Source: Oceanispirochaeta sp.
GTDB lineage: Bacteria > Spirochaetota > Spirochaetia > DSM-2461
NCBI GenBank assembly: GCA_963663385.2
Contig: CAXXXD010000004.1
Location: 768,001 to 832,000 of the forward strand
Length of the DNA: 64,000 nucleotides
Direction: 5' to 3'
Shown: piece after piece, positions 36,380 to 49,277 of the stretch
Layout of the letters: each line of letters begins with the position of its first letter
Numbering within the stretch: position 1 is the stretch's first letter
Translations under genes and position numbers: made by a program
Notes under the pieces: model-generated
Told to the model about the DNA's origin: nothing
What the model saw: the letters and a program-made list of their open reading frames with translations, nothing else
The model's database searches: none

Positions 36380-36419
36380 TTGACCTCCGGTATAGACCAT
36401 GCTATTAATGGACTATACC
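36380..36419 (+). promoter_or_regulatory. Promoter with overlapping inverted-repeat operator for the GntR/glutamate mutase operon
   Basis: TTGACC 36380-36385, 17 bp, TATTAA; operator GGTATAGACCAT-N7-ATGGACTATACC (11/12 palindromic). Confidence 0.7.
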
Positions 36420-36437
36420 AATTTTACGGTGGTACAT

Positions 36438-37427
36438 ATGATCAAGGTGGAAATAGATAAAAGCAGCGCTGTCCCCGTCTACAGGCAGCTTATGCAGAAT
36501 ATTGTCCGGCAGGTTAAAGACGGGCAATTGAAGCCGGGGGACAAACTGCCTCCCGAAAGGGAGCTGGCCCTTGAGCTGGATGTGGCCCGGGGGACGGTAA
36601 AGAAAGCCTACAGCGAGCTGGAAAATACCCGCATTATTGACGTTATTCAGGGGCGGGGCAGTTTTGTCGCCAGAGCTCAGGATGTGGTTGTTCAGAGCCG
36701 GAAAGACAGGGCTGTTTCCCTGATCGATCATGCCCTGGACGAGCTGGAAGATCTGAAATTCTCCAGGCAGGAAATCCAGACTTTTTTTCACCTTCTGATG
36801 ATGAAGCGGGAGCAGCGTATCCTGGATTTCAATGTGGCCGTTATCGACTGCAATATGGAAGCCCTTTCTGTTATAGAAAAGCAGCTGCAGTATATTTCCC
36901 GCATTAAAATTCATAAATACCTGCTGGATGATCTGAATAACGAAAACGATCCCCAGCAGAGGCTGAGCGGGTTTGACATCATCATTACAACATCCACTCA
37001 TTTCAGTGAGTTGACGGGACTTCTTCCCGATCTGGCGGACCGGATTGTGCAGGCGGCTCTCTCTCCCAGTCAGCAGACAATTATTGATCTGGCTTCCATC
37101 AAGTCGGAGAACAGTATCGGTATTATCTGTCACAGTAACCGCTTCCGGGATATTATTAAATCCAGACTGAAAACCTTCGGAATCCCCACAAAATCCATTC
37201 CCACCCTCAGAGCGGAAAAGGAGAAGGATTACCATGCTTTTCTAAAGGATAAACAGGTTATTATCGTTCCTCCCGACAGTTCGATCGGAGAAGGAAAAAT
37301 CCGGGCCGCCGCTCTGCAGGATTTTACCACACGGGGCGGGACGGTTATCCCTTTCAACTATCAGATAGACAGGGGCTCCCTGATCTATATCGAGGAGCAG
37401 ATCTCCGAAAGGCTGAATAAAAAATGA
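36438..37427 (+). CDS. GntR family regulator with an uncharacterised C-terminal domain
   Basis: PVYRQL...[26 protein letters not shown]...QGRGSFV; start moved to ATG 36438, downstream of the promoter. Confidence 0.88.
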
Positions 37428-37846
37428 GTGCAGAAGGAAGAACGATTGTATTGGGTGTAATCGGGGCGGATTGCCACTCCGTAGGGAACAAGATCCTGGA
37501 CCGCTTTTTTACAGAGGCCGGGTTTAGGGTGATTAATCTGGGAGTCATGGTCAGTCAGGATGAATACATTGATGCGGCCATTGAGACAGATGCGGACGCC
37601 ATCCTGGTATCTTCCCTCTACGGCCATGGCGAGATCGACTGTCAGGGATTCCGGGACCGCTGCATTGAACGCGGACTGGAGGATATAGTGCTCCATGTGG
37701 GGGGGAACCTGGTTATCGGAAAAGCAGATAAAGAGGCAGTCCGGAAGAAATTCCATGATATGGGATTCGACCGGGTTCATATTGCAGGGACACCTCTGGA
37801 GACAGCTCTGGCGGACTTGAAAACAGACCTGCATATTCAGGACTGA
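37424..37846 (+). CDS. glmS: Glutamate (methylaspartate) mutase S subunit, B12-binding
   Basis: [16 protein letters not shown] (DxHxxG), [23 protein letters not shown]. Confidence 0.96.
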
Positions 37847-37861: not shown

Positions 37862-39253
37862 ATGGTTATCAGCATCGACATCGGTTCCACCTGGACGAAA
37901 GGGGCTCTCTTCAAACCTGTCCGGGGGCGTCTGGCTATGAGGCAGCGGGAAGTCCTGCCGACCACAGTCCGGGACCTTTCCCGGGGATTTCAGATTGTTC
38001 TGGAACGACTGAAAGGGAAAGCCGAAGCAGATCCCGGCTGGGACGGGAGTCTTTCGGTCTGCTGTTCTTCCTCCGCTCACGGCGGACTGAAGATGGCGGC
38101 TATCGGTGTGGTTCCGGGATTAACCCTTAAAGCCGCCCGGCTGGCTGCGCTTTCGGCGGGGGCTAAACTGGTTTTTTCCCGTTCCTACAGGATGATTCGG
38201 GATGATCTGACGGCTCTGGAAGAAGCCGGTCCGGATATGATACTGCTTACGGGAGGTACCGACGGCGGGAACAGAAGTTTTATTCTGCATAATGCCGAAC
38301 TTCTGAATGAATTGTCCCTGTCGGTTCCCATTCTCTATGCGGGCAACAGGGATTTGAGGGATGATGTAGCCCGCATACTGAAAAACAGGGAGCTCCACCT
38401 GGCGGAAAATGTCCTGCCGGACCTGGAGAACCCCCGTCCCGATGAAGCCAGAGGGCGGATCCGGGAACTTTTTCTTTCCCGGATTATTCAGGGGAAGGGA
38501 TTAACCGGTGTCCGTGATCTGTCCGGTGCTGATCCGGTTCCGACCCCGGCTTCCCTCTATGATTTTCTGCGTCTGGTTGATCAATCCGGAAAGGTGAAGG
38601 AGCCCTTCTGTCTGGTTGACATGGGCGGAGCAACCACCGACTGTTATTCCGTTCGAAGGGATATCCCCGATTCCCGTACGGTGCTGAAGGGCTTGAGGGA
38701 GCCGGATCTGAAGCGGACCGTTGAAGGAGACCTGGGCCTCCGGGTCAGTGCTGCCTCCGTTCTGGAGGCTGAAGACGGGAGCATCTTTTCCGTTATTGAC
38801 CGGGAAGGACTTGACCGGGAGGAATTCAAATCCTATGTAAAACGGATCAGTGCTTCAACCGAATACCTCCCGCAGAATACAAAGGAAAAATCCTATGACC
38901 GCATTCTGGCTGATTTCTGTTTCAGGACAGCCCTTCAGCGCCATGCCGGCCGTGTCCGGGAGGTCTATACCAATCAGGGACAGACCTTTCTGCAGGAAGG
39001 AAAAAACCTGAATGCAGTAAAACTGATTATCGGTACGGGAGGGTATCTTGCTGCATCAGAAGACTATCATCCGGAACAGATACCGCTGACCGGTTTGGAC
39101 AGAAAGGGGCTTCAGATACTGGGACCTGAAGAATTTACATATAGAACGGATAGGGGGTATGTCCTTCCTCTGCTGGCCAATGCCGGCCGGGTCTATCCGG
39201 AAGAATCAGTTAATACAATGCTTGCTCTTTGTGAGGGGAATCTATGGAATTAG
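37862..39253 (+). CDS. glmL: Glutamate mutase reactivase/accessory protein GlmL (MutL)
   Basis: DIGSTWTK, CSSSAHGGL, GGTDGGN, VDMGGATTD.YS, KRTVEGDLGLRVSA. Confidence 0.93.
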   Translation: MVISIDIGSTWTKGALFKPVRGRLAMRQREVLPTTVRDLSRGFQIVLERLKGKAEADPGWDGSLSVCCSSSAHGGLKMAAIGVVPGLTLKAARLAALSAGAKLVFSRSYRMIRDDLTALEEAGPDMILLTGGTDGGNRSFILHNAELLNELSLSVPILYAGNRDLRDDVARILKNRELHLAENVLPDLENPRPDEARGRIRELFLSRIIQGKGLTGVRDLSGADPVPTPASLYDFLRLVDQSGKVKEPFCLVDMGGATTDCYSVRRDIPDSRTVLKGLREPDLKRTVEGDLGLRVSAASVLEAEDGSIFSVIDREGLDREEFKSYVKRISASTEYLPQNTKEKSYDRILADFCFRTALQRHAGRVREVYTNQGQTFLQEGKNLNAVKLIIGTGGYLAASEDYHPEQIPLTGLDRKGLQILGPEEFTYRTDRGYVLPLLANAGRVYPEESVNTMLALCEGNLWN

Positions 39254-40692
39254 AGAATAAAAATCTGAGCCGGGAAGAGTATCTGTCGGAGCGGGAGTCT
39301 GTCATGACCGGCTGGCGAACCGGTGAGGGAGTCTCTCTGGAAGAGGGCTTCCGTTACCAGCACAGCCTTCCGGAAGGGAAGAAATTCGCCCATGTGTTAA
39401 ACAAGGCTGTTGAGAACAATAAGGTGCTGATTCAGCCACGGGCGGGAGTAGCTCTTGTGGACGAACACATTAAACTGCTGAAATATCTGGAGGAGGAATC
39501 GGATCTTCTCCCCACGACAATAGATGCCTATACCCGGCAGAACCGTTATGCCGAAGCGGAAGAGGGAATCAGAAAATCCCGGGAGGCGGGGCACTCCCTT
39601 CTTAACGGATTTCCGGCGGTCAACCATGGACTTGATTCCTGCCGTCGTATTGTGGAAGCCCTGGATAAACCGGTTGAGATCCGTCACGGAACCCCCGATG
39701 CCCGGCTTCTGGCGGAAATATCTTTTGCCGCCGGATTCAACTCCTTTGAGGGGGGCGGGATCTCCTACAATGTTCCCTACGCCAAAAGTGTTCCCCTGGA
39801 AAAGTCCATCCGGGACTGGCAGTACTGCGACCGCCTTGTGGGGATATATGAACAGGAGGGGATCCGGATAAACCGGGAACCCTTCGGGCCTCTTTCGGGG
39901 ACGCTGGTTCTGCCCTTTATCAGCCACTCCGTTGCCATTATCGAAGGGCTCCTCGCCCTGGAGCAGGGGGTGAAATCCCTGACCCTGGGGTACGGACAGG
40001 CCGGAAATATGGTTCAGGATATCGCAGCCATTCAAACCCTGCGTGAATTGGCTCATAAGTATTTCGGAGAAGCCGGTTATGAGGATTATGAACTCTCTAC
40101 CGTATTCCATCAGTGGATGGGCGGATTCCCCGAGGATGAAGCCCGGGCCTTCTCGGTTATCTCCTGGGGCGGAGCTGTGGCGGCTTTTGCCGGAGCTACC
40201 AAGGTAATTGTTAAAACTCCCCATGAGGCAATGGGAATCCCTACCAGGGAAGCAAACCTGCAGGGGCTCAAGACGACCCGGCAGATTATTCAGATGCTGG
40301 GGGATCAGTGTCTGATCAATATCCGGGAACTGGAGCAGGAAAAAGCCATGATCCACCGTGAAGTGGATGCTGTTCTGGATGCTGTGTTCAAGGCGGGAGA
40401 CGGGGATATCGCCAGAGGGGCCGTTAAAGCTTTTGAAGGAGGCATTATCGATGTTCCCTTTGCCCCGGCTGCCTGTAATGCGGGAAAACTTCTTCCTGTC
40501 CGGGATGATCAGGGAGCTGTGCGGGTCTTTGATCCGGGAAACACCCCTTTCCCGGCGGATGTTCTGGATTTTCACAGGGACAAGGTTCGGGAACGGGCGG
40601 ACAGCGAAGAGCGGGAACCCTGTTTTCAGATGGTAATTGATGATATCTACGCCATAAGCAAAGGGCGACTGGTTGGGAGGCCGCAGAATTGA
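39244..40692 (+). CDS. glmE: Glutamate (methylaspartate) mutase E subunit
   Basis: QPRAGV, LPTTIDAYTRQNRY, LLNGFPAVNHG, RHGTPDARLL, FHQWMGGFP, KTPHEA. Confidence 0.97.
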   Translation: MELENKNLSREEYLSERESVMTGWRTGEGVSLEEGFRYQHSLPEGKKFAHVLNKAVENNKVLIQPRAGVALVDEHIKLLKYLEEESDLLPTTIDAYTRQNRYAEAEEGIRKSREAGHSLLNGFPAVNHGLDSCRRIVEALDKPVEIRHGTPDARLLAEISFAAGFNSFEGGGISYNVPYAKSVPLEKSIRDWQYCDRLVGIYEQEGIRINREPFGPLSGTLVLPFISHSVAIIEGLLALEQGVKSLTLGYGQAGNMVQDIAAIQTLRELAHKYFGEAGYEDYELSTVFHQWMGGFPEDEARAFSVISWGGAVAAFAGATKVIVKTPHEAMGIPTREANLQGLKTTRQIIQMLGDQCLINIRELEQEKAMIHREVDAVLDAVFKAGDGDIARGAVKAFEGGIIDVPFAPAACNAGKLLPVRDDQGAVRVFDPGNTPFPADVLDFHRDKVRERADSEEREPCFQMVIDDIYAISKGRLVGRPQN

Positions 40693-41942
40693 AGATTGTA
40701 AAAGTACTGTTTTCTCCGGGTGTGACCGGATTCTTTTTTGATGATCAGAAAGCTATAAAATCGGGTGCCGAACACGATGGGTTTATCTATAAGGGCGAGG
40801 CTGTGACTCCCGGATTCCGGAGTATCCGTATGGCCGGAGAGTCCATTTCGATTCAGCTTGTAATGGAGAACGGCCGGATAGCCCGTGGGGACTGCGCAGC
40901 AGTTCAGTACTCCGGGGCCGGAGGACGGGACCCCCTCTTTCTGGCGGAAACCTATATCCCTTTTCTGGAGAAACATATCAAACCCCCTCTGGAAGGCCGG
41001 AACATCCTCTCTTTCCGGGAGGAAGCTGAGTATTTTGATGCTCTGGAAGTGGAGGGCGGCAAGCTTCACACAGCCCTGCGTTACGGGATTTCCCAGGCCC
41101 TGCTGGATGCGGCGGCTATCGCTTCGAATTGCCTGAAAAGCGAAGTTATCTGCCGGGAGTATGATCTGCCTGTCGTAGCCGAAGGAGTTCCCCTGTTCGC
41201 TCAGACCGGAGACGACCGCTACAATGCGGTGGATAAAATGATTCTGAAAAATGTGGATGTCCTGCCCCACGGGCTTATCAACAATGTGGATGAGAAACTG
41301 GGCCGGAAGGGTGAGAAACTCCTGGAATATGTGGCCTGGCTCCGGAATCGCGTAGGGACTCTGCGGCAGGATGTTTCGTATAAACCGGATCTCCATATCG
41401 ATGTGTACGGAACAATCGGGCTGATTTTTGAGGGTGACACGGATAAAATGGCCGATTATTTCCTGCAGCTGGAAGAGGCGGCCGGAGATTTGCAGCTCTA
41501 TATCGAAGGCCCCGTGGATATGGGAGAGAAACAGGCTCAGATCAAAGCCATGGGAGACCTGAAGAGGGCTCTTGAAGAACGGAACTGCCGTGTTAAAACC
41601 GTAGCGGATGAGTGGTGCAATACCTGGGAGGATATCCGGGATTTTACCGATGCGGGCTGCTGCCATATGGTGCAGATTAAAACCCCCGACCTGGGGAGTG
41701 TGCATAATATTGTGAAAAGCGTGCTCTACTGCCGGGAGAAGGGGATGGAAGCCTATCAGGGGGGGACCTGTAACGAAACGGATATTTCGGCTCAGACCTG
41801 CACCCATATTGCCCTGGCGGTAAGAGCCGAGCGTCTACTTGTTAAGCCCGGGATGGGGTTTGACGAAGGGTTGACTATCGTCAGAAATGAAATGGAACGC
41901 ACCCTTGCGGTTCTTAAATACAAAGCCGGGGAGGACGTCTGA
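40689..41942 (+). CDS. mal: 3-methylaspartate ammonia-lyase
   Basis: GFFFDDQKAIK, GDCAAVQYSGAGGRDPLF, LPHGLIN, HIDVYG, VADEWCNT, QIKTPDLG, KPGMGFDEG. Confidence 0.97.
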   Translation: MKIVKVLFSPGVTGFFFDDQKAIKSGAEHDGFIYKGEAVTPGFRSIRMAGESISIQLVMENGRIARGDCAAVQYSGAGGRDPLFLAETYIPFLEKHIKPPLEGRNILSFREEAEYFDALEVEGGKLHTALRYGISQALLDAAAIASNCLKSEVICREYDLPVVAEGVPLFAQTGDDRYNAVDKMILKNVDVLPHGLINNVDEKLGRKGEKLLEYVAWLRNRVGTLRQDVSYKPDLHIDVYGTIGLIFEGDTDKMADYFLQLEEAAGDLQLYIEGPVDMGEKQAQIKAMGDLKRALEERNCRVKTVADEWCNTWEDIRDFTDAGCCHMVQIKTPDLGSVHNIVKSVLYCREKGMEAYQGGTCNETDISAQTCTHIALAVRAERLLVKPGMGFDEGLTIVRNEMERTLAVLKYKAGEDV

Positions 41943-41943
41943 A

Positions 41944-43308
41944 ATGGAAAACAAAGTGAAAAAAGAATTTACCGTGCTGTCTCCCACAGCTATTCTGGGA
42001 TACGGGTTTCCTGAGGAATCCTTCTACAGGGGGCTGGAAGCTTCTCCCGATCTGATTGCCGTAGACGGCGGTTCAACCGATCCCGGCCCCTACTACCTGG
42101 GAGCGGGAAAGTCCTTTACAGACAGGACCGGTGTAAAACGGGATTTGCGCTATATGATTACCGAAGGGGTCAAGCGGGGTATCCCCGTGGTTGTCGGAAC
42201 AGCGGGCGGCAGCGGGGCGGCTCCCCATCTGCAGTGGTGCCGGCAGATCGTGGAGGAGATTGCCCGGGAACAGGATCTCTCCTTTAAACTGGGGCTGATT
42301 CACTCGGATATAGACCGGGAGGTTGTCCGCACAGCCCTGAAAGCCGGGAAGATTACCCCTCTGGAATATGTGCCGGAGCTGACGGAAGAGGCTCTGGATG
42401 AAACGGATAATATTGTTGCCCAGATAGGCGTGGAGCCCATGATACGCGCCCTGGAAGAGGGGTGTCAGGTTATCCTTTCGGGGAGAGCCTACGATCCCGC
42501 CTGTTTCTCCGCTCTGCCCATTATGAAGGGGTATGATCCGGGACTGGCGACCCATATGGGCAAAATTCTGGAGTGTGCCGCCATTGCCGCTTCGCCCGGT
42601 TCCGGTTCCGACTGTGTTCTGGGCATACTGGAGGAGGACTCTTTTCGTCTGGAAACTCTCAGTCCGGAGCGCCGTTTTACCGCAGAATCGACGGCAGCCC
42701 ATACGCTTTATGAAAAATCCGATCCCTATCATCTGCATGGTCCGGGAGGTATCCTGAACCTGGAGAGTTGCCGGTTTGAGGAAATCCCGTCCGGAGTCAG
42801 GGTGAGGGGCAGCCGGTTTGAACCCTCAGGTTCCTATACGGTAAAACTGGAAGGAGCCCGCCTGATAGGTTACAGAACCATCAGTATTGCCGGAACCCGT
42901 GACCGGATCCTTATCAATCAGATCGAATCCGTGGCGGATCTGGTAAAGAAACGGGTGGAGGACCTTCTTAAAAAAGAGAACCTTCAGGGGGATGTCTCTT
43001 TTCATCTCTACGGAAAAAACGGTGTTATGGGAGATCTGGAACCGGAGAAGAACTCAGTCGGCAAAGAGCTGGCCATTGTAATTGAAGCGATAGCCCCGGA
43101 ACAGGAGATGGCCGACACCATCTGCAGCATGACCCGTTCAACCTTTCTGCATTACGGGTACGACGGCCGGATCTCTACAGCCGGAAACCTGGCTTTTCCC
43201 TTCTCTCCCTCGGATATCCGGGCGGGAGAGGTGTATACATTCTCCCTCTATCATATAATGGAAGTAAATGATCAGGAACTTTTCAAAGTCGAGGTATGCG
43301 AATTATGA
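41944..43308 (+). CDS. AtuA-like (acyclic terpene utilization/DUF1446) family protein
   Basis: LSPTAILGYGF, DGGSTDPGPYYLG, GTAGGSG, GRAYDP, HMGKILEC, AHTLYEK, TAGNLAFPFSP. Confidence 0.85.
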   Translation: MENKVKKEFTVLSPTAILGYGFPEESFYRGLEASPDLIAVDGGSTDPGPYYLGAGKSFTDRTGVKRDLRYMITEGVKRGIPVVVGTAGGSGAAPHLQWCRQIVEEIAREQDLSFKLGLIHSDIDREVVRTALKAGKITPLEYVPELTEEALDETDNIVAQIGVEPMIRALEEGCQVILSGRAYDPACFSALPIMKGYDPGLATHMGKILECAAIAASPGSGSDCVLGILEEDSFRLETLSPERRFTAESTAAHTLYEKSDPYHLHGPGGILNLESCRFEEIPSGVRVRGSRFEPSGSYTVKLEGARLIGYRTISIAGTRDRILINQIESVADLVKKRVEDLLKKENLQGDVSFHLYGKNGVMGDLEPEKNSVGKELAIVIEAIAPEQEMADTICSMTRSTFLHYGYDGRISTAGNLAFPFSPSDIRAGEVYTFSLYHIMEVNDQELFKVEVCEL

Positions 43309-43619
43309 GAAAAATAACCGATCTGGCCCGTGTTATCCGGTCCAAAAATGCCGGTCCCTTCGAACTGACACTGGATGTTATATTCCGGGAAGCCGCCGAT
43401 TATAATAAAATCAAGGAGAGAAAGCTTATCAATGAGGAGCTCATAGCCGGGTTGTACAAGATAGAGCCTTCTCTGGTTAAAAATCTGGTCTATTTTGATC
43501 CCGCCCATGCGGTGAAGGTTACCATGAAGCGGGAAATCCCCTCCGGTTCTCCCGGCGATACGGATATCTACGGGGCACAGCAGCATGCGCCGCTTCTGGA
43601 TCTGGAGTTTGATATTTAA
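43305..43619 (+). CDS. DUF4387-like protein
   Basis: LARVIRSKNAGPFELTLD...GDTDIYGAQQHAPL; ATGA overlap with the upstream gene. Confidence 0.85.
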   Translation: MRKITDLARVIRSKNAGPFELTLDVIFREAADYNKIKERKLINEELIAGLYKIEPSLVKNLVYFDPAHAVKVTMKREIPSGSPGDTDIYGAQQHAPLLDLEFDI

Positions 43620-44561
43620 ATGTATACCCAGAGCAATCCTGTCAGTGAAAACCTGATCTATTCCACCTATTATGCCCCCCGGGGGAGGAAACGACTCTAC
43701 CAGCTGGGAAGTATGCTATCCCAGCGGTATATTTCGCCGGAAGATAAGCTGATAGGTGTGATCGGAGCGGAGGGCGCCGGGAAATCAACCCTGATCAAAG
43801 CCCTGTTCCCCGGTCTGGAACTGACCAATGACGATGACGGTGTCAATCTGAGACCCACTCCGATCTACGATTTCGATCAGGGGAATTTCTTCTCCGGCCA
43901 GACCTTTCATATTGACTACCGTTACGAATCGGCCTTTCATCAGAAGTTCGAAATTCTTGATGCCATCAACCGGGCCATTGAAGACGGGCGGCGGGTCATA
44001 ATTGAGCACTTCGATCTGGTCTATGAAGCCCTGGGGTACAATGCCCAGATTCTGTTCGGTATAGGGGAGGAAGTGATTGTTGCACGGCCAACCGTATTCG
44101 GACCATCCCCCCTCTCGATTCGTGAAATTGTTAACCGTACCATAAAATACCGGTTGATGGCCCATACGGCAGAAGACATAACCAGCATGGTTCTGGAAAA
44201 AGAGTACAACTACCATAATCCGGTCCTCCACTCCGATGTAAAACACGGTTTTGTGATCAGTTTTCCCGAAGAACCGAAAATCCCGATAGCCGAGCTGGAA
44301 GCCAAGGTCCTGGATATCATAGCGCAGGATGTCAAAGTGACCATAGCCCGGGATAAGCATATCCATATCGGGGATTACGATATGTTCTGCACCGGTCCCC
44401 GGACCCACGTCAAGTCCTCCGGTCAGATCAGGAACTTCAAGCTGCGGAAGGAGTACTCCTACGATCCTCTGACCAGGCAGTACTATCTGATCGGAAGGGT
44501 GGGGAACCGGGAAATCGCAGGGTATGAGAATATACTTCAGGAACCCGACATCCCCACTTAG
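43620..44561 (+). CDS. P-loop domain fused to an AlaRS/ThrRS second additional (editing-type, tRNA_SAD) domain
   Basis: Walker A GAEGAGKS; RLMAHTAED and FCTGPRTHV resemble the HxxxH and CxGTH motifs of AlaX-type editing domains. Confidence 0.75.
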   Translation: MYTQSNPVSENLIYSTYYAPRGRKRLYQLGSMLSQRYISPEDKLIGVIGAEGAGKSTLIKALFPGLELTNDDDGVNLRPTPIYDFDQGNFFSGQTFHIDYRYESAFHQKFEILDAINRAIEDGRRVIIEHFDLVYEALGYNAQILFGIGEEVIVARPTVFGPSPLSIREIVNRTIKYRLMAHTAEDITSMVLEKEYNYHNPVLHSDVKHGFVISFPEEPKIPIAELEAKVLDIIAQDVKVTIARDKHIHIGDYDMFCTGPRTHVKSSGQIRNFKLRKEYSYDPLTRQYYLIGRVGNREIAGYENILQEPDIPT

Positions 44562-44840: not shown

Positions 44841-45614
44841 ATGATCCTGGCGCTGGATGCAGGGAGTTCCCGCCTGTTCGGCGGGATTCTGCAAGAGGGC
44901 ATACTGATTGCTTCATTCAGAAAAAACAGCTCAACCGGTATCACCGCCGATGAGATAGGTCTCTTTCTGCTGCAGTGGCTGCAGGCTAAAGACATGGATG
45001 CTTCCGATGTGGAAGGCTTTGTTTTCTGCTCTGTTGTCCCGGAGCTGAACGGGATTCTGGAAGAGTGCAGCCGGATCTATTTCGGCCTGGATGCTCTGAC
45101 CCTGAGAGCCGGAGTTAAAAGCGGGCTGCAGGTAAAGTATACCAACCACCATGAGTTGGGTGCTGACCTTATTGCCAATGCTGTAGCCGGTGTAAAACTG
45201 CATCCCGGAAAGAATCTTATTATTGTAGATTTTGGAACAGCTACCAGTCTGTGCGGGGTCAGTGCTGCCAGAGAGTATCTGGGAGGCACCCTTATCCCGG
45301 GGCTGGATATTACCATGGAGGCCCTGGCTGATAGAACAGCCAGACTGCCGGCGGTGGAAATCTGCCCGGTACAGAAGGTCTGCGGAAGGGATACGGTCAG
45401 CGGTATTCAGGGGGGACTGTTTTTCGGAACCCTGGGGATGCTTAAAGAGCTGATCTACCGGATGCGCCGCGAGTGCTTTGCAGATGATGAAGTAACTGTT
45501 ATTGCGACGGGGCAGCATGCCGGCCTGTTCAGAAAATTTCGTTTATTCGATTACATAGTACCGGAGCTTGTACTCCTCGGTTTGGAAGAAATCAGAGAAC
45601 TCAACCTGATTTGA
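44841..45614 (+). CDS. coaX: Type III pantothenate kinase homolog with divergent motifs
   Basis: [43 protein letters not shown]. Confidence 0.85.
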
Positions 45615-45631
45615 CTAGGCTGGAGGACGCT

Positions 45632-46537
45632 TTGAGCGAACAGACCTGGTCTGAGAAACAGACCGCAACATGGAAGAGTAAAGTAGGATTGGCAGAGATG
45701 CTGAAGGGCGGAGTTATTATGGATGTGGTAACTCCCGAACAGGCTGTCATAGCAGAAGAAGCCGGAGCATCGGCTGTAATGGCCCTGGAACGGGTCCCTG
45801 CTGATATCAGGCAGGACGGCGGGGTGGCGAGAATGTCCGATCCCGAAATGATCAGGGGAATTCAGGACGCCGTCAGCATACCTGTTATGGCAAAATGCCG
45901 AATCGGCCATTTTACCGAAGCCCGCATACTGGAAGCTCTTGAAATTGATTTTATTGATGAATCCGAAGTCCTTACTCCGGCGGATGACCGCTATCATGTT
46001 CTAAAGGATGATTTTCGGGTCCCCTTTGTCTGCGGATGCCGGAACCTGGGAGAAGCCCTCAGGCGGATCGGCGAAGGAGCCGTTATGATCCGGACGAAAG
46101 GAGAAGCCGGAACGGGAGATATTTCCGAGGCCGTCCGGCATATGCGGACGCTTAAGGAAGATATCGCCCGTCTGGCAGGGCTTCCGAAAGAGACCCTCAT
46201 GACTGCCGCAAAAGAGATGGGGGCTCCCTACGATCTGGTTCTCGAAGTAGCCCGTACGGGAAAGCTGCCAGTTCCCAATTTCTCGGCAGGAGGGGTAGCA
46301 ACACCGGCGGATGCCGCATTGATGATGCATCTGGGGGCGGAAGCCGTATTTGTCGGTTCGGGGATCTTTAAATCTGAAAATCCGGCTAAAAGAGCCCGCG
46401 CGGTTGTAGAAGCTGTCACTTTCTATCAGGATCCCTGCAAGCTGGCTGAGATCTCACGGAATCTGGGTGCCCCCATGACGGGTATCGGAATGGATGATCT
46501 GCCCACAGATCAGCGTCTGGCAACAAGGGGCTGGTAA
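45632..46537 (+). CDS. pdxS: Pyridoxal 5'-phosphate synthase lyase subunit
   Basis: [62 protein letters not shown] before TTG 45632. Confidence 0.97.
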
Positions 46538-47097
46538 TGACGGTTCCCGGGATATTGGCTCTTCAGGGAGGATACGCGGCCCATGGTCAAGTTCTGAAAA
46601 GGATGGGATATAATCCTGTCGAAGTCAGAACCCCGGAAGATCTGAAAAAGGCTGATTGCCTGATTCTGCCGGGAGGTGAAAGTACGGTGATGATAAAACT
46701 CCTGAAGCGTTGCGGTCTTTTCATACCCCTGAAGAGGAGCATTCAGGAGGGGATGCCTGTGTTCGGAACCTGTGCCGGCATGATTCTTCTTTCTTCCGGT
46801 ATCGAAGGTCTTGCCCAACCGGTGCTGTCAGCTATGGACTGTAGAGTCAGGCGGAATGCATACGGACGGCAGATCGACAGTTTTGAGGCACAGTTGAATT
46901 GGGGAAAGCATTCTATCCCTGCGTTATTTATACGGGCTCCGCAGGTAAGCAGCACGGGAAAGGATGTGGAAATCCTGATTCGTTTTGAAAACAGTCCCGT
47001 ACTGATAAAACAGGGGAAAAGACTGGCTGCCAGTTTTCATCCGGAATTAACCGGATCAGACCTGGTACACCGGTATTTTATGGAATCAATCTGCTGA
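46537..47097 (+). CDS. pdxT: Pyridoxal 5'-phosphate synthase glutaminase subunit
   Basis: GILALQGG, LPGGEST, GTCAGMIL, RRNAYGRQIDSF, FIRAP, SFHPEL. Confidence 0.96.
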   Translation: MTVPGILALQGGYAAHGQVLKRMGYNPVEVRTPEDLKKADCLILPGGESTVMIKLLKRCGLFIPLKRSIQEGMPVFGTCAGMILLSSGIEGLAQPVLSAMDCRVRRNAYGRQIDSFEAQLNWGKHSIPALFIRAPQVSSTGKDVEILIRFENSPVLIKQGKRLAASFHPELTGSDLVHRYFMESIC

Positions 47098-47916: not shown

Positions 47917-48438
47917 TTATTTGAAAATACTGTTCCCCTTGCTGTCGATGGCAACGAATACGGGAAAATCGGTTACTTCCAGTTTATAGATTGCTTCAGG
48001 TCCCAGATCTTCAAATGCTATAAGTTCACAGGAGGTAATCCGGTCCGAATAGAGAGCCCCGCATCCTCCGAAGGCATAGAGAAATACAGCCCCGTTCCGT
48101 TTGATAGCCTCATAGACATCCCTGTTCCGGTTGCCTTTGCCGATCATTCCGGTAAGCCCCCGGTCAAGCAGGGCAGGGGCAAAGGGGTCCATCCGTCCGG
48201 CTGTCGTCGGCCCGGCGGAACCTATGACCCGTCCCTCCGGTGTAGGGCTTGGCCCCATGTAGTAGATGATGTTCCCTTTCAGTTCTATCGGGAGGGGTTC
48301 ACCCTTATCCAGAAGTCCTATCATCCTCTGATGAGCCTGGTCGCGGCCCACAAAAATGGTCCCGTTCAGCCTCAGTTCCTCTCCGGCTTTCAGTTCTTTT
48401 ACAAAGGATTTTTCAAGGGGGAGTTGTATCTTTCTCAT
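47917..48438 (-). CDS. Class I Fe-S fumarate hydratase, beta subunit
   Basis: GRDQAH, YYMGP.P, SAGPTTAGRMD, MIGKG, GGCGAL, DLGPEAI, AIDSKGN. Confidence 0.92.
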   Translation of the reverse strand: MRKIQLPLEKSFVKELKAGEELRLNGTIFVGRDQAHQRMIGLLDKGEPLPIELKGNIIYYMGPSPTPEGRVIGSAGPTTAGRMDPFAPALLDRGLTGMIGKGNRNRDVYEAIKRNGAVFLYAFGGCGALYSDRITSCELIAFEDLGPEAIYKLEVTDFPVFVAIDSKGNSIFK

Positions 48439-49277
48439 AGGGTTACCACCAGTTTTCTATCGGCCCAGCAGTTGACGCTTACCGCGACGGGGAGGCCTGC
48501 AATATGGGTCGGGTATTTTTCAATTTTCACCCCCAGGGCTGTTGTCTTTCCCCCCAGCCCGCCCGAACCGATCCCTGTCGCGTTGATGCGGTTCAGAATT
48601 TCATCTTCCAGTTCGGCGTACCAGGGGTCGCTGTGATGTTCATCCAGGTTCCTCAGCAGGGCTTTTTTGGATAACCGGGCGGCATAATCCATGGTTCCTC
48701 CCATTCCCACTCCCAGAACAACCGGGGGGCAGGGGGCTCCGCCGGCCTCTTTGACCACGTTGACAACCGATTCAATGACTGTTTCCCTGTCAGCTGTCGG
48801 TTTATGCATTATAATGCGGCTGCAGTTTTCACTGCCGAATCCCTTGAGAAGTCCCTGGATCACCAGTCTGTCTCCGGGGATGCTGTCATAGTAGATAATG
48901 GGGGGAAGGTTGTTCCCCGTATTCTTTCTCTCTTTAAGAGGATCCTCCACTACGGATTTTCTGAAAAATCCTTCTTTATAGGCATCTTCTACCGCACGCT
49001 GGATCAGGGCTTCCAGAGGCTCTCCCTCCAGTTGAAGTTCCCGCCCGGTAGAAACAAAGAGGATCACCATCCCCGTATCCTGACAGAGAGGTATCTTTTT
49101 TTCCCGGGCAATGACCAGATTTTCCAGGATATGTTCCAGGACGCTTCTGGCCGGTCCTTCCTCCTTGTGCTTTGCCTTCTCTATGCCGGAGAGGATGTCT
49201 TCAGGCAGAACGACACCGGCCTGTATGATCGCCTCTTTCAGGGGGGTGTAAATTTCCTGTGAGTTCAGCTTTCTCAT
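48435..49277 (-). CDS. Class I Fe-S fumarate hydratase, alpha subunit
   Basis: PLCQDTG, KGFGSEN, GGAPCPP, GLGGKTT, PTHIAGLPVAV..NCWA.R. Confidence 0.92.
   Translation of the reverse strand: MRKLNSQEIYTPLKEAIIQAGVVLPEDILSGIEKAKHKEEGPARSVLEHILENLVIAREKKIPLCQDTGMVILFVSTGRELQLEGEPLEALIQRAVEDAYKEGFFRKSVVEDPLKERKNTGNNLPPIIYYDSIPGDRLVIQGLLKGFGSENCSRIIMHKPTADRETVIESVVNVVKEAGGAPCPPVVLGVGMGGTMDYAARLSKKALLRNLDEHHSDPWYAELEDEILNRINATGIGSGGLGGKTTALGVKIEKYPTHIAGLPVAVSVNCWADRKLVVTL

Follow-up and report, generated by a model that had tools for sequence, protein, structure and literature searches.

Gene X, the subject of this analysis, lies in a window of 64,000 nucleotides (the whole stretch of Oceanispirochaeta sp. 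DNA that was analysed), where it ends a series of genes that abut or overlap one another, the others being a GntR regulator, glmS, glmL, glmE, mal, an AtuA-family gene and a DUF4387 gene. The genes of the region, with coordinates in the window, strand and the evidence for each assignment, are as follows:

36399..37427, + strand, GntR-family regulator (PF00392)
37424..37846, + strand, glmS, glutamate mutase B12-binding subunit (TIGR01501, over its cut-off)
37862..39253, + strand, glmL, mutase accessory protein (TIGR01319, PF13941)
39244..40692, + strand, glmE, glutamate mutase large subunit (TIGR01503)
40689..41942, + strand, mal, methylaspartate ammonia-lyase (TIGR01502)
41941..43308, + strand, cmlA (AtuA/DUF1446), citramalate lyase subunit A (PDB 9erq_A, E 1.5e-186)
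43305..43619, + strand, cmlB (DUF4387), citramalate lyase subunit B (PF14330; PDB 9erq_B, E 4.3e-36)
43620..44561, + strand, gene X, open reading frame of 313 amino acids, TsaE-like ATPase plus AlaX/AlaRS/ThrRS-type editing fold, both predicted (open reading frame, homologs, model, profiles)
47917..49277, − strand, two genes, split class I fumarase, probable mesaconase (37% and 24% identity to E. coli Sakai ECs_0757)

The two genes directly upstream of gene X (AtuA/DUF1446 and DUF4387, 41941-43619), which had passed as “unknown”, are, as judged from their database matches, those of the citramalate lyase CmlAB (PDB 9ERQ/9EVF); DUF4387 was not mentioned among the matches listed in our literature search. 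Since the main steps of the methylaspartate pathway are all present (mutase, lyase, a mesaconase candidate and citramalate lyase), none of them is missing. The gene order glmS-glmL-glmE-mal-cmlA-cmlB is that described for the E. coli Sakai methylaspartate cluster with CmlAB (PMC4682846; PDB 9ERQ, 9EVF), whereas the Sakai chromosome has no gene X. The split fumarase is located 3.4 kb downstream of gene X on the opposite strand, and a fumarase pair is found near gene X in 45 of 77 loci. A type III pantothenate kinase gene, of which the genome has three, lies in the segment at 44841-47097; behind it come two genes that we take to be pdxS and pdxT.

The frame of gene X is open over 313 codons and ends with TAG. 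Its ATG at 43620 directly follows the TAA stop codon of the DUF4387 gene (43617-43619) with 0 bases between them, as the original prediction had placed it. A scan for promoters and terminators returned nothing informative. Of the 3166 candidates in the homolog search, 2137 passed as homologs at E<=0.001, and their names are automatic only (“alanine-tRNA synthetase second additional domain-containing”, “TsaE”, “GTPase SAR1” or “hypothetical”). No Pfam or NCBIfam family matched gene X over its cut-off: the match to tRNA_SAD (PF07973) at residues 249-280 had an E value of 0.005 and 17.2 bits against a cut-off of 24, which one homolog exceeds (25.8), and the score with PF02367 (TsaE) was 14.2 against a cut-off of 26.6. 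Assignment to ABC transporters was rejected, as the PDB and NCBIfam matches of this kind cover mostly the Walker A region and fall far under the cut-offs. No fused forms were found among 7994 longer candidates, which is weak evidence; two odd fusions (P0347 and P0277) look chimeric, and shorter forms are mostly fragments on short contigs. The ESM Atlas returned only gene X's own clusters at a similarity of at least 0.9, and the C-terminal domain alone gave leads of at most 0.82. The pattern of motifs and homology is far beyond chance. No paper on the gene X family was found in the literature searched, where coverage of subscription journals was thin and cluster figures or supplements of pathway papers might show the gene, and the annotation phrase of its homologs was absent among the matches listed.

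The original prediction had described gene X as a fusion of a P-loop domain with an editing domain, and both folds were obtained from structure prediction and from profile comparisons. The AlphaFold2 model, built with 112 homologs, had a mean pLDDT of 89.8 and a pTM of 0.87. The predicted domains and the motifs within them, including the Walker A, HTAED and CTGPRTH motifs that had been pointed out originally, map to the following positions:

43653..44108, + strand, N-terminal TsaE/YjeE/YdiB-like P-loop domain, residues ~12-163 (Foldseek, VIA, hhalign)
43764..43790, + strand, Walker A GAEGAGKST, residues 49-57, with G49, G54, K55 and S56 invariant (alignment)
43824..43835, + strand, TNDD loop, residues 69-72, in place of the TsaE SPT switch I (alignment)
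43908..43922, + strand, HxDxR, residues 97-101, the TsaE switch II HxDxYR minus Tyr (hhalign, alignment)
44004..44009, + strand, E129-H130, Walker B, counterpart of TsaE EW (alignment, hhalign)
44133..44510, + strand, C-terminal editing-type domain, residues ~172-297 (VIA, hhalign)
44151..44177, + strand, R178 and HxxED (residues 182-186, HTAED), an altered HxxxH (72/72, 77/77 and 112/112 sequences)
44388..44408, + strand, CxGxRxH (residues 257-263, CTGPRTH), an altered CxGxH with an invariant Arg (72/72 and 77/77; Cys in 111/112)

Among the Foldseek matches of the model, YjeE/TsaE chains took the first five places (E 3e-5 to 7e-5), ahead of AlaX-M, ThrRS, YdiB and AlaRS; matches of the N-terminal domain had E values of 3e-5 to 1e-4 overall. 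In VIA-align comparisons of the predicted model, the N-terminal domain gave Z scores of 9.2-9.9 with YdiB, TsaE and YjeE (9.9 with 5np9, rmsd 3.5 over 127 residues) and of at most 7.8 with ABC ATPases. The editing domains of AlaX, AlaRS and ThrRS gave Z scores of 11.5-13.8, with 12.6 for the C-terminal domain against AlaX 1v7o (rmsd 3.3 over 121 residues). For hhalign, we used a gene X profile of 72 sequences (the window and 71 of the 77 loci with a long match) and reference sets parsed from 30 of 31 TsaE loci and from 24 of 32 loci with editing domains. Residues 1-170 matched the 30 TsaE sequences with a probability of 94.7 (E 6e-8), and residues 165-300 matched the 24 AlaRS/ThrRS/AlaX editing domains with a probability of 97.9 (E 3.6e-13), while crossed comparisons, in which each domain was aligned with the other family, gave 0.4 and 0.2. 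The P-loop domain is thus predicted to be specifically TsaE-like, which the original prediction had not recognised. In the model, a long helix (164-196) joins the two sites, and the linker residues R156, G161 and P162 are invariant.

Of the TsaE motifs, the Lys, Ser, His, Asp and Glu persist at the predicted ATPase site of gene X. According to PMC13241743 and PMC6614819, Walker A, SPT/S, HxDxYR and EW are the defining motifs of TsaE/UbK. The switch I position reads [TSC]N[DE]D in all 72 gene X sequences and SP[TS] in none, against SPT/S in 30/30 of the TsaE set; switch II reads HxDxR in 71/72 and HxDxYR in 0/72; EH stands for EW in 72/72. Residues K55, S56, H97, D99, E129 and H130 were invariant in all 77 full matches from 80 metagenome loci, which were collected with search patterns that omitted these residues, save one pattern that covered H97. 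Compared with TsaE/YjeE/YdiB (UbK; PF02367), gene X therefore shares the predicted fold, Walker A, the His and Asp of HxDxYR and the Walker B Glu, and differs in the lack of the SPT loop and of the switch II Tyr and in EH for EW. By these motifs, its product is classed as a homolog of TsaE and not as TsaE proper. Its distribution is also not the near-universal one of a t6A subunit, since it occurs in 3 of 251, 7 of 201 and 13 of 301 genomes of the samples described below, while a canonical TsaE was found in 30 of 30 genomes tested and in the genome of the window, which carries tsaE elsewhere together with three separate tRNA_SAD proteins.

At the editing-type site, R178, H182, E185, D186, C257, G259, R261 and H263 were invariant in 72/72 and 77/77 sequences and, in the alignment of 112 homologs, in 112/112, except for the Cys (111/112). 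The set of 72 had been gathered by patterns of the ATPase domain only and spans pairwise identities of 35-98%, and the metagenome set of 77 involved one search pattern that contained HTAED. The motif alterations proposed in the original prediction were borne out by hhalign, which pairs HxxxH with HxxED and places a two-residue insertion in CxGxH. Canonical HxxxH is absent, its first His being kept within HxxED (72/72), and in the second motif Cys, Gly and His are kept around the insertion with its invariant Arg (72/72). The Cys is crucial for editing in both AlaRS and ThrRS, H73 of ThrRS activates water and C182 binds the 2′-OH of A76, and AlaRS and AlaX-M can edit without the second His of HxxxH, as stated in PMC12003907. 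As read from the alignments, gene X alters exactly the dispensable second His and keeps the other three editing residues.

Compared with AlaX and the editing domains of AlaRS and ThrRS (PF07973; PDB 1v7o, 9iuw, 3kew, 1tje), gene X shares the predicted fold, the first His of HxxxH, the Cys, Gly and His of CxGxH and a ThrRS-like GF strand. Unlike them, it has Asp for the second His and the Arg-bearing insertion, lacks a segment of ~25 residues that hhalign shows in canonical domains, is fused to an ATPase and stands in a metabolic operon. It may also differ at the tRNA-facing Arg that precedes the last strand (R693 in E. coli AlaRS); all 24 canonical domains carry this Arg, as recognised by pattern in 23 and by eye in 1. 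In a manual register set on the invariant G292, the corresponding position 289 is Arg in 0/72 gene X sequences, whereas the global hhalign register, which points to position ~286, gives 14 Arg and 25 Lys among 72. This Arg is not universal in AlaX: eukaryotic AlaX proteins with a hydrophobic residue at that position still deacylate, and act on many tRNAs (PMC11260482), which is why its loss would speak against specificity for tRNA-Ala and not against deacylation. The protein carries no known appended tRNA-binding domain, and proteins that do not edit can also have the editing fold, an example being the mitoribosomal chain 3j7y_7 (Z 9.8 to the gene X model). As judged from sequence, gene X belongs strictly to neither AlaX nor TsaE. 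The pairing of a TsaE with an AlaX domain was not found in print in the literature searched. Two divergent singleton homologs were noted, one (P0251) that has lost ATPase residues and R261 and keeps most of the editing-type site, and another (P0265) that has lost both sites.

Profiling against glmE and mal, which the original prediction had suggested, was carried out on several collections and showed that gene X tracks these two genes. Among 79 loci from species genomes, gene X was present in 77, with MAL in 56 and GlmE in 50 of these. The other 27 genomes, with no GlmE in the locus, have GlmE elsewhere in 21 cases and MAL in the locus in 3 more; the last 3, which are MAGs of unstated completeness, have neither. 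In 80 metagenome loci with gene X, MAL was found in 50 and GlmE in 47. When only metagenome loci of at least 9 kb were considered (n=46), glmS, glmE or mal was present in 38; in 4, the contig ends close to gene X and other genes of the pathway are present, and in 4 (L204, L218, L225 and L227) gene X is alone. Intact gene X with no pathway gene nearby was observed in L204, L207, L218, L225, L227 and L194.

Taxon-wide samples gave 3 genomes with gene X and 15 with GlmE in the window's own phylum (251 genomes), 7 and 10 in the order of G251 (201 genomes), and 13 and 13 in the order of G254 (301 genomes), where the correspondence with true GlmE is one-to-one (12/12). The pooled counts omit the three centre genomes, which had been chosen for having gene X, and so cover 750 genomes. 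Far from being mostly unlinked to the mutase, all 19 intact copies of gene X in the three samples are in GlmE-positive genomes, of which there are 35 by GlmE match; the sole copy among the 715 GlmE-negative genomes (in G667) is frameshifted, internally deleted and part of a decayed cluster. That cluster (G667:C29, L267:6400-11500) consists of a fumarase pair, citrate-lyase-like fragments and the broken gene X, in a genome without glmE. We give no P value for the link because kin genomes are not independent. Conversely, 16 of the 35 GlmE-positive genomes lack gene X; 9 of the 16 belong to one genus, and the 16 also include one contig that ends after mal and two distantly related GlmE proteins (33% identity) that have no MAL in their vicinity. 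The latter, in G763:C5 (L266:6290-9675, a GlmE-GlmS fusion) and G148:C54 (L265:8478-10347), are possibly mutases of another substrate. Full methylaspartate operons without gene X occur in G048, G418, G441 and the E. coli Sakai chromosome, and inspection of gene X-negative regions by eye, using N-terminal sequences, revealed no substitute editor.

Gene X follows glmE and mal and not CmlAB, CitDEF, GlmL or GntR, the last being near it in only 26 of 77 loci. Several more specific associations were considered and rejected. A partnership with CmlAB or a CitDEF-type lyase does not fit, as gene X occurs with either or neither. Replacement of glutamate racemase does not fit, as murI is over its cut-off in 4 of 5 genomes of the rph-rdgB type and, in L059 and L068, also precedes the operon. 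A tie to the non-discriminating AspRS route does not fit, as AsnRS is present in 26/26 gene X-positive and 6/8 gene X-negative mutase genomes; bacterial AspRS, found in 24/26 and 8/8, respectively, shows no pattern. We conclude that gene X is accessory to the methylaspartate pathway and is found almost only in bacteria with glutamate fermentation via 3-methylaspartate. It is a real gene with a conserved sequence and, as far as sequence data can tell, is functionally tied to this pathway, which is a classic B12 route and with which it is carried, uncharacterised, across several phyla of anaerobes.

The intermediate common to the genes linked with gene X is 3-methylaspartate. We propose, with a probability of about 0.4, that the gene X protein is a deacylase of 3-methylaspartyl-tRNA (probably tRNA-Asp), with the ATPase possibly gating its activity. 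High flux through glutamate mutase would raise the methylaspartate pool, and AspRS would sometimes charge this amino acid. The retained His182 and Cys257 would then hydrolyse the ester as in ThrRS and AlaRS, the new invariant Arg178 and Arg261 may hold the acidic side chain, and ATP turnover may switch or reset the editing-type site. Deacylation appears the simplest reading because it makes use of the two new Arg residues and of the catalytic His and Cys that are kept, and fits the accessory distribution, and the dispensability of gene X might fit a guard role. E. coli AspRS is described in PMC1989143 as accepting β-substituted aspartate, namely threo-β-hydroxy-Asp, with the β-methyl ester also listed. 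We found no paper on charging of 3-methylaspartate by AspRS, AsnRS or GluRS in the literature searched, which included few subscription journals, nor one that combines methylaspartate, tRNA synthetase and misincorporation. Since the cognate aspartate is smaller than methylaspartate and would fit into the same pocket, ATP switching would be of use; that a TsaE-type switch and an AlaX-type site together spend ATP to tell 3-methylaspartyl-tRNA from aspartyl-tRNA, and so guard the proteome, seems to us rather improbable.

The logic has precedents, so that of the original claim that either proposed role, deacylase or repurposed sensor or enzyme, was undescribed, only the part concerning the gene X protein itself stands in the literature searched. 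CtdA lies before or beside a canavanine catabolic operon and edits canavanyl-tRNA (PMC10018355), and the fluorothreonyl-tRNA deacylase FthB is mentioned in PMC11295145. Like these stand-alone editors of non-protein amino acids, gene X is linked to the pathway of its presumed amino acid; unlike it, they have B3/4 and ProXp-related folds without an ATPase domain, and their activity has been demonstrated, while that of gene X is a proposal. The predicted editing fold, the conservation of the site and the pathway link agree with the function first suggested. Against deacylation, ATP is unneeded for this reaction and yet the ATPase residues are invariant (77/77), ~25 residues of the canonical domain are missing, many users of the pathway lack gene X, and no association of gene X with AspRS type or with absence of AsnRS was seen.

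Because an invariant ATPase is not needed for deacylation, readings in which the protein is a sensor or an NTP-dependent enzyme have to be weighed. The editing fold could bind methylaspartate, glutamate or a metal and control the TsaE/UbK-like ATPase (or protein kinase), which in turn would adjust the GntR regulator or an enzyme of the pathway. TsaE works as an ATP switch and has homologs reported to be protein kinases (PMC13241743, PMC6614819), D99, E129 and K55 correspond to the catalytic Asp, Glu and Lys of the kinase, the long modelled helix links the two sites, and an accessory distribution suits a regulator. We nevertheless regard this role as unlikely, since the SPT autophosphorylation loop and the Tyr of HxDxYR are absent (each 0/72), GntR is too seldom a neighbour, and the hydrolase-like His/Cys pair, being strictly invariant, suggests catalysis. 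Catalysis on a small molecule, with both domains serving ATP-dependent repair or salvage of a by-product such as the wrong methylaspartate isomer or an adduct formed by an aspartate-using enzyme, strikes us as improbable to the same degree. It would account for the co-invariance of the two sites and of R156, G161 and P162, for the well-defined domain packing (as judged from the pTM), for two new Arg residues suited to a dicarboxylate and for the loss of the tRNA-facing Arg (in the manual register) and of the 25-residue segment, but no main-line step awaits an enzyme and no candidate substrate was indicated by any analysis.

Somewhat less likely still, the protein would be a chaperone of GlmS/GlmE that uses ATP to load or exchange their cobalamin. 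A parallel is the GTPase MeaB, which has this role for methylmalonyl-CoA mutase; PMC10356863 concerns its human homolog. The one-to-one occurrence with true GlmE in one order, the resetting of a partner enzyme by TsaE through ATP hydrolysis, as reported in the TsaE literature cited above, and the place of gene X, which follows glmL in L072, L169, L174, L201 and L203 and is flanked by glmL and glmE in L006, would agree with upkeep of the mutase. Entire mutase operons do without gene X, however, and the editing-type site is given no role. The accessory slot is, moreover, already occupied by GlmL, the presumed reactivase of glutamate mutase. A partnership specifically with GlmL is unlikely and was rejected, as no GlmL was found, in the operons or elsewhere, in 3 of 5 gene X-positive genomes tested (completeness not given).

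Should methylaspartyl-tRNA deacylation be the function, proofreading would extend to a catabolic intermediate, and an AlaX fold controlled by ATP would have an acidic amino acid as its target; an ATP-driven proofreader would protect the cell's proteins from a non-protein amino acid that its own energy metabolism produces as a main-line intermediate. If gene X instead serves the mutase or regulates flux, it would be a missing helper relevant to engineered methylaspartate routes such as those of bioRxiv 10.1101/2025.11.12.688011.

Some further features of these genomes were observed. The genome of the window carries a second GlmL-like gene, 33% identical, at G000:C3:1035232-1036554, and, immediately before asnS (G000:C3:831569-834877), a second AsnRS/AspRS-like gene, which is shorter; C1 carries a bacterial AspRS as well. 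In several Bacillota (L032, L035, L036, L040, L054, L059, L060 and L232), the cluster lies just upstream of rph-rdgB, with murI sometimes before the cluster; in L032, gene X is still beside rph-rdgB while glmE is on another contig. A single frame of 427 amino acids at L059:2799-4079 combines glutamate racemase with a GlmS B12-binding domain, an apparent MurI-GlmS fusion whose GlmS coordinates recur in L233 and L236. Extra genes, by eye dehydratase-like, ATP-dependent activator-like and metallo-hydrolase-like, stand between mal and cmlA at L040:2013-6149, and gaps at the same place are seen in L161, L170 and L219.
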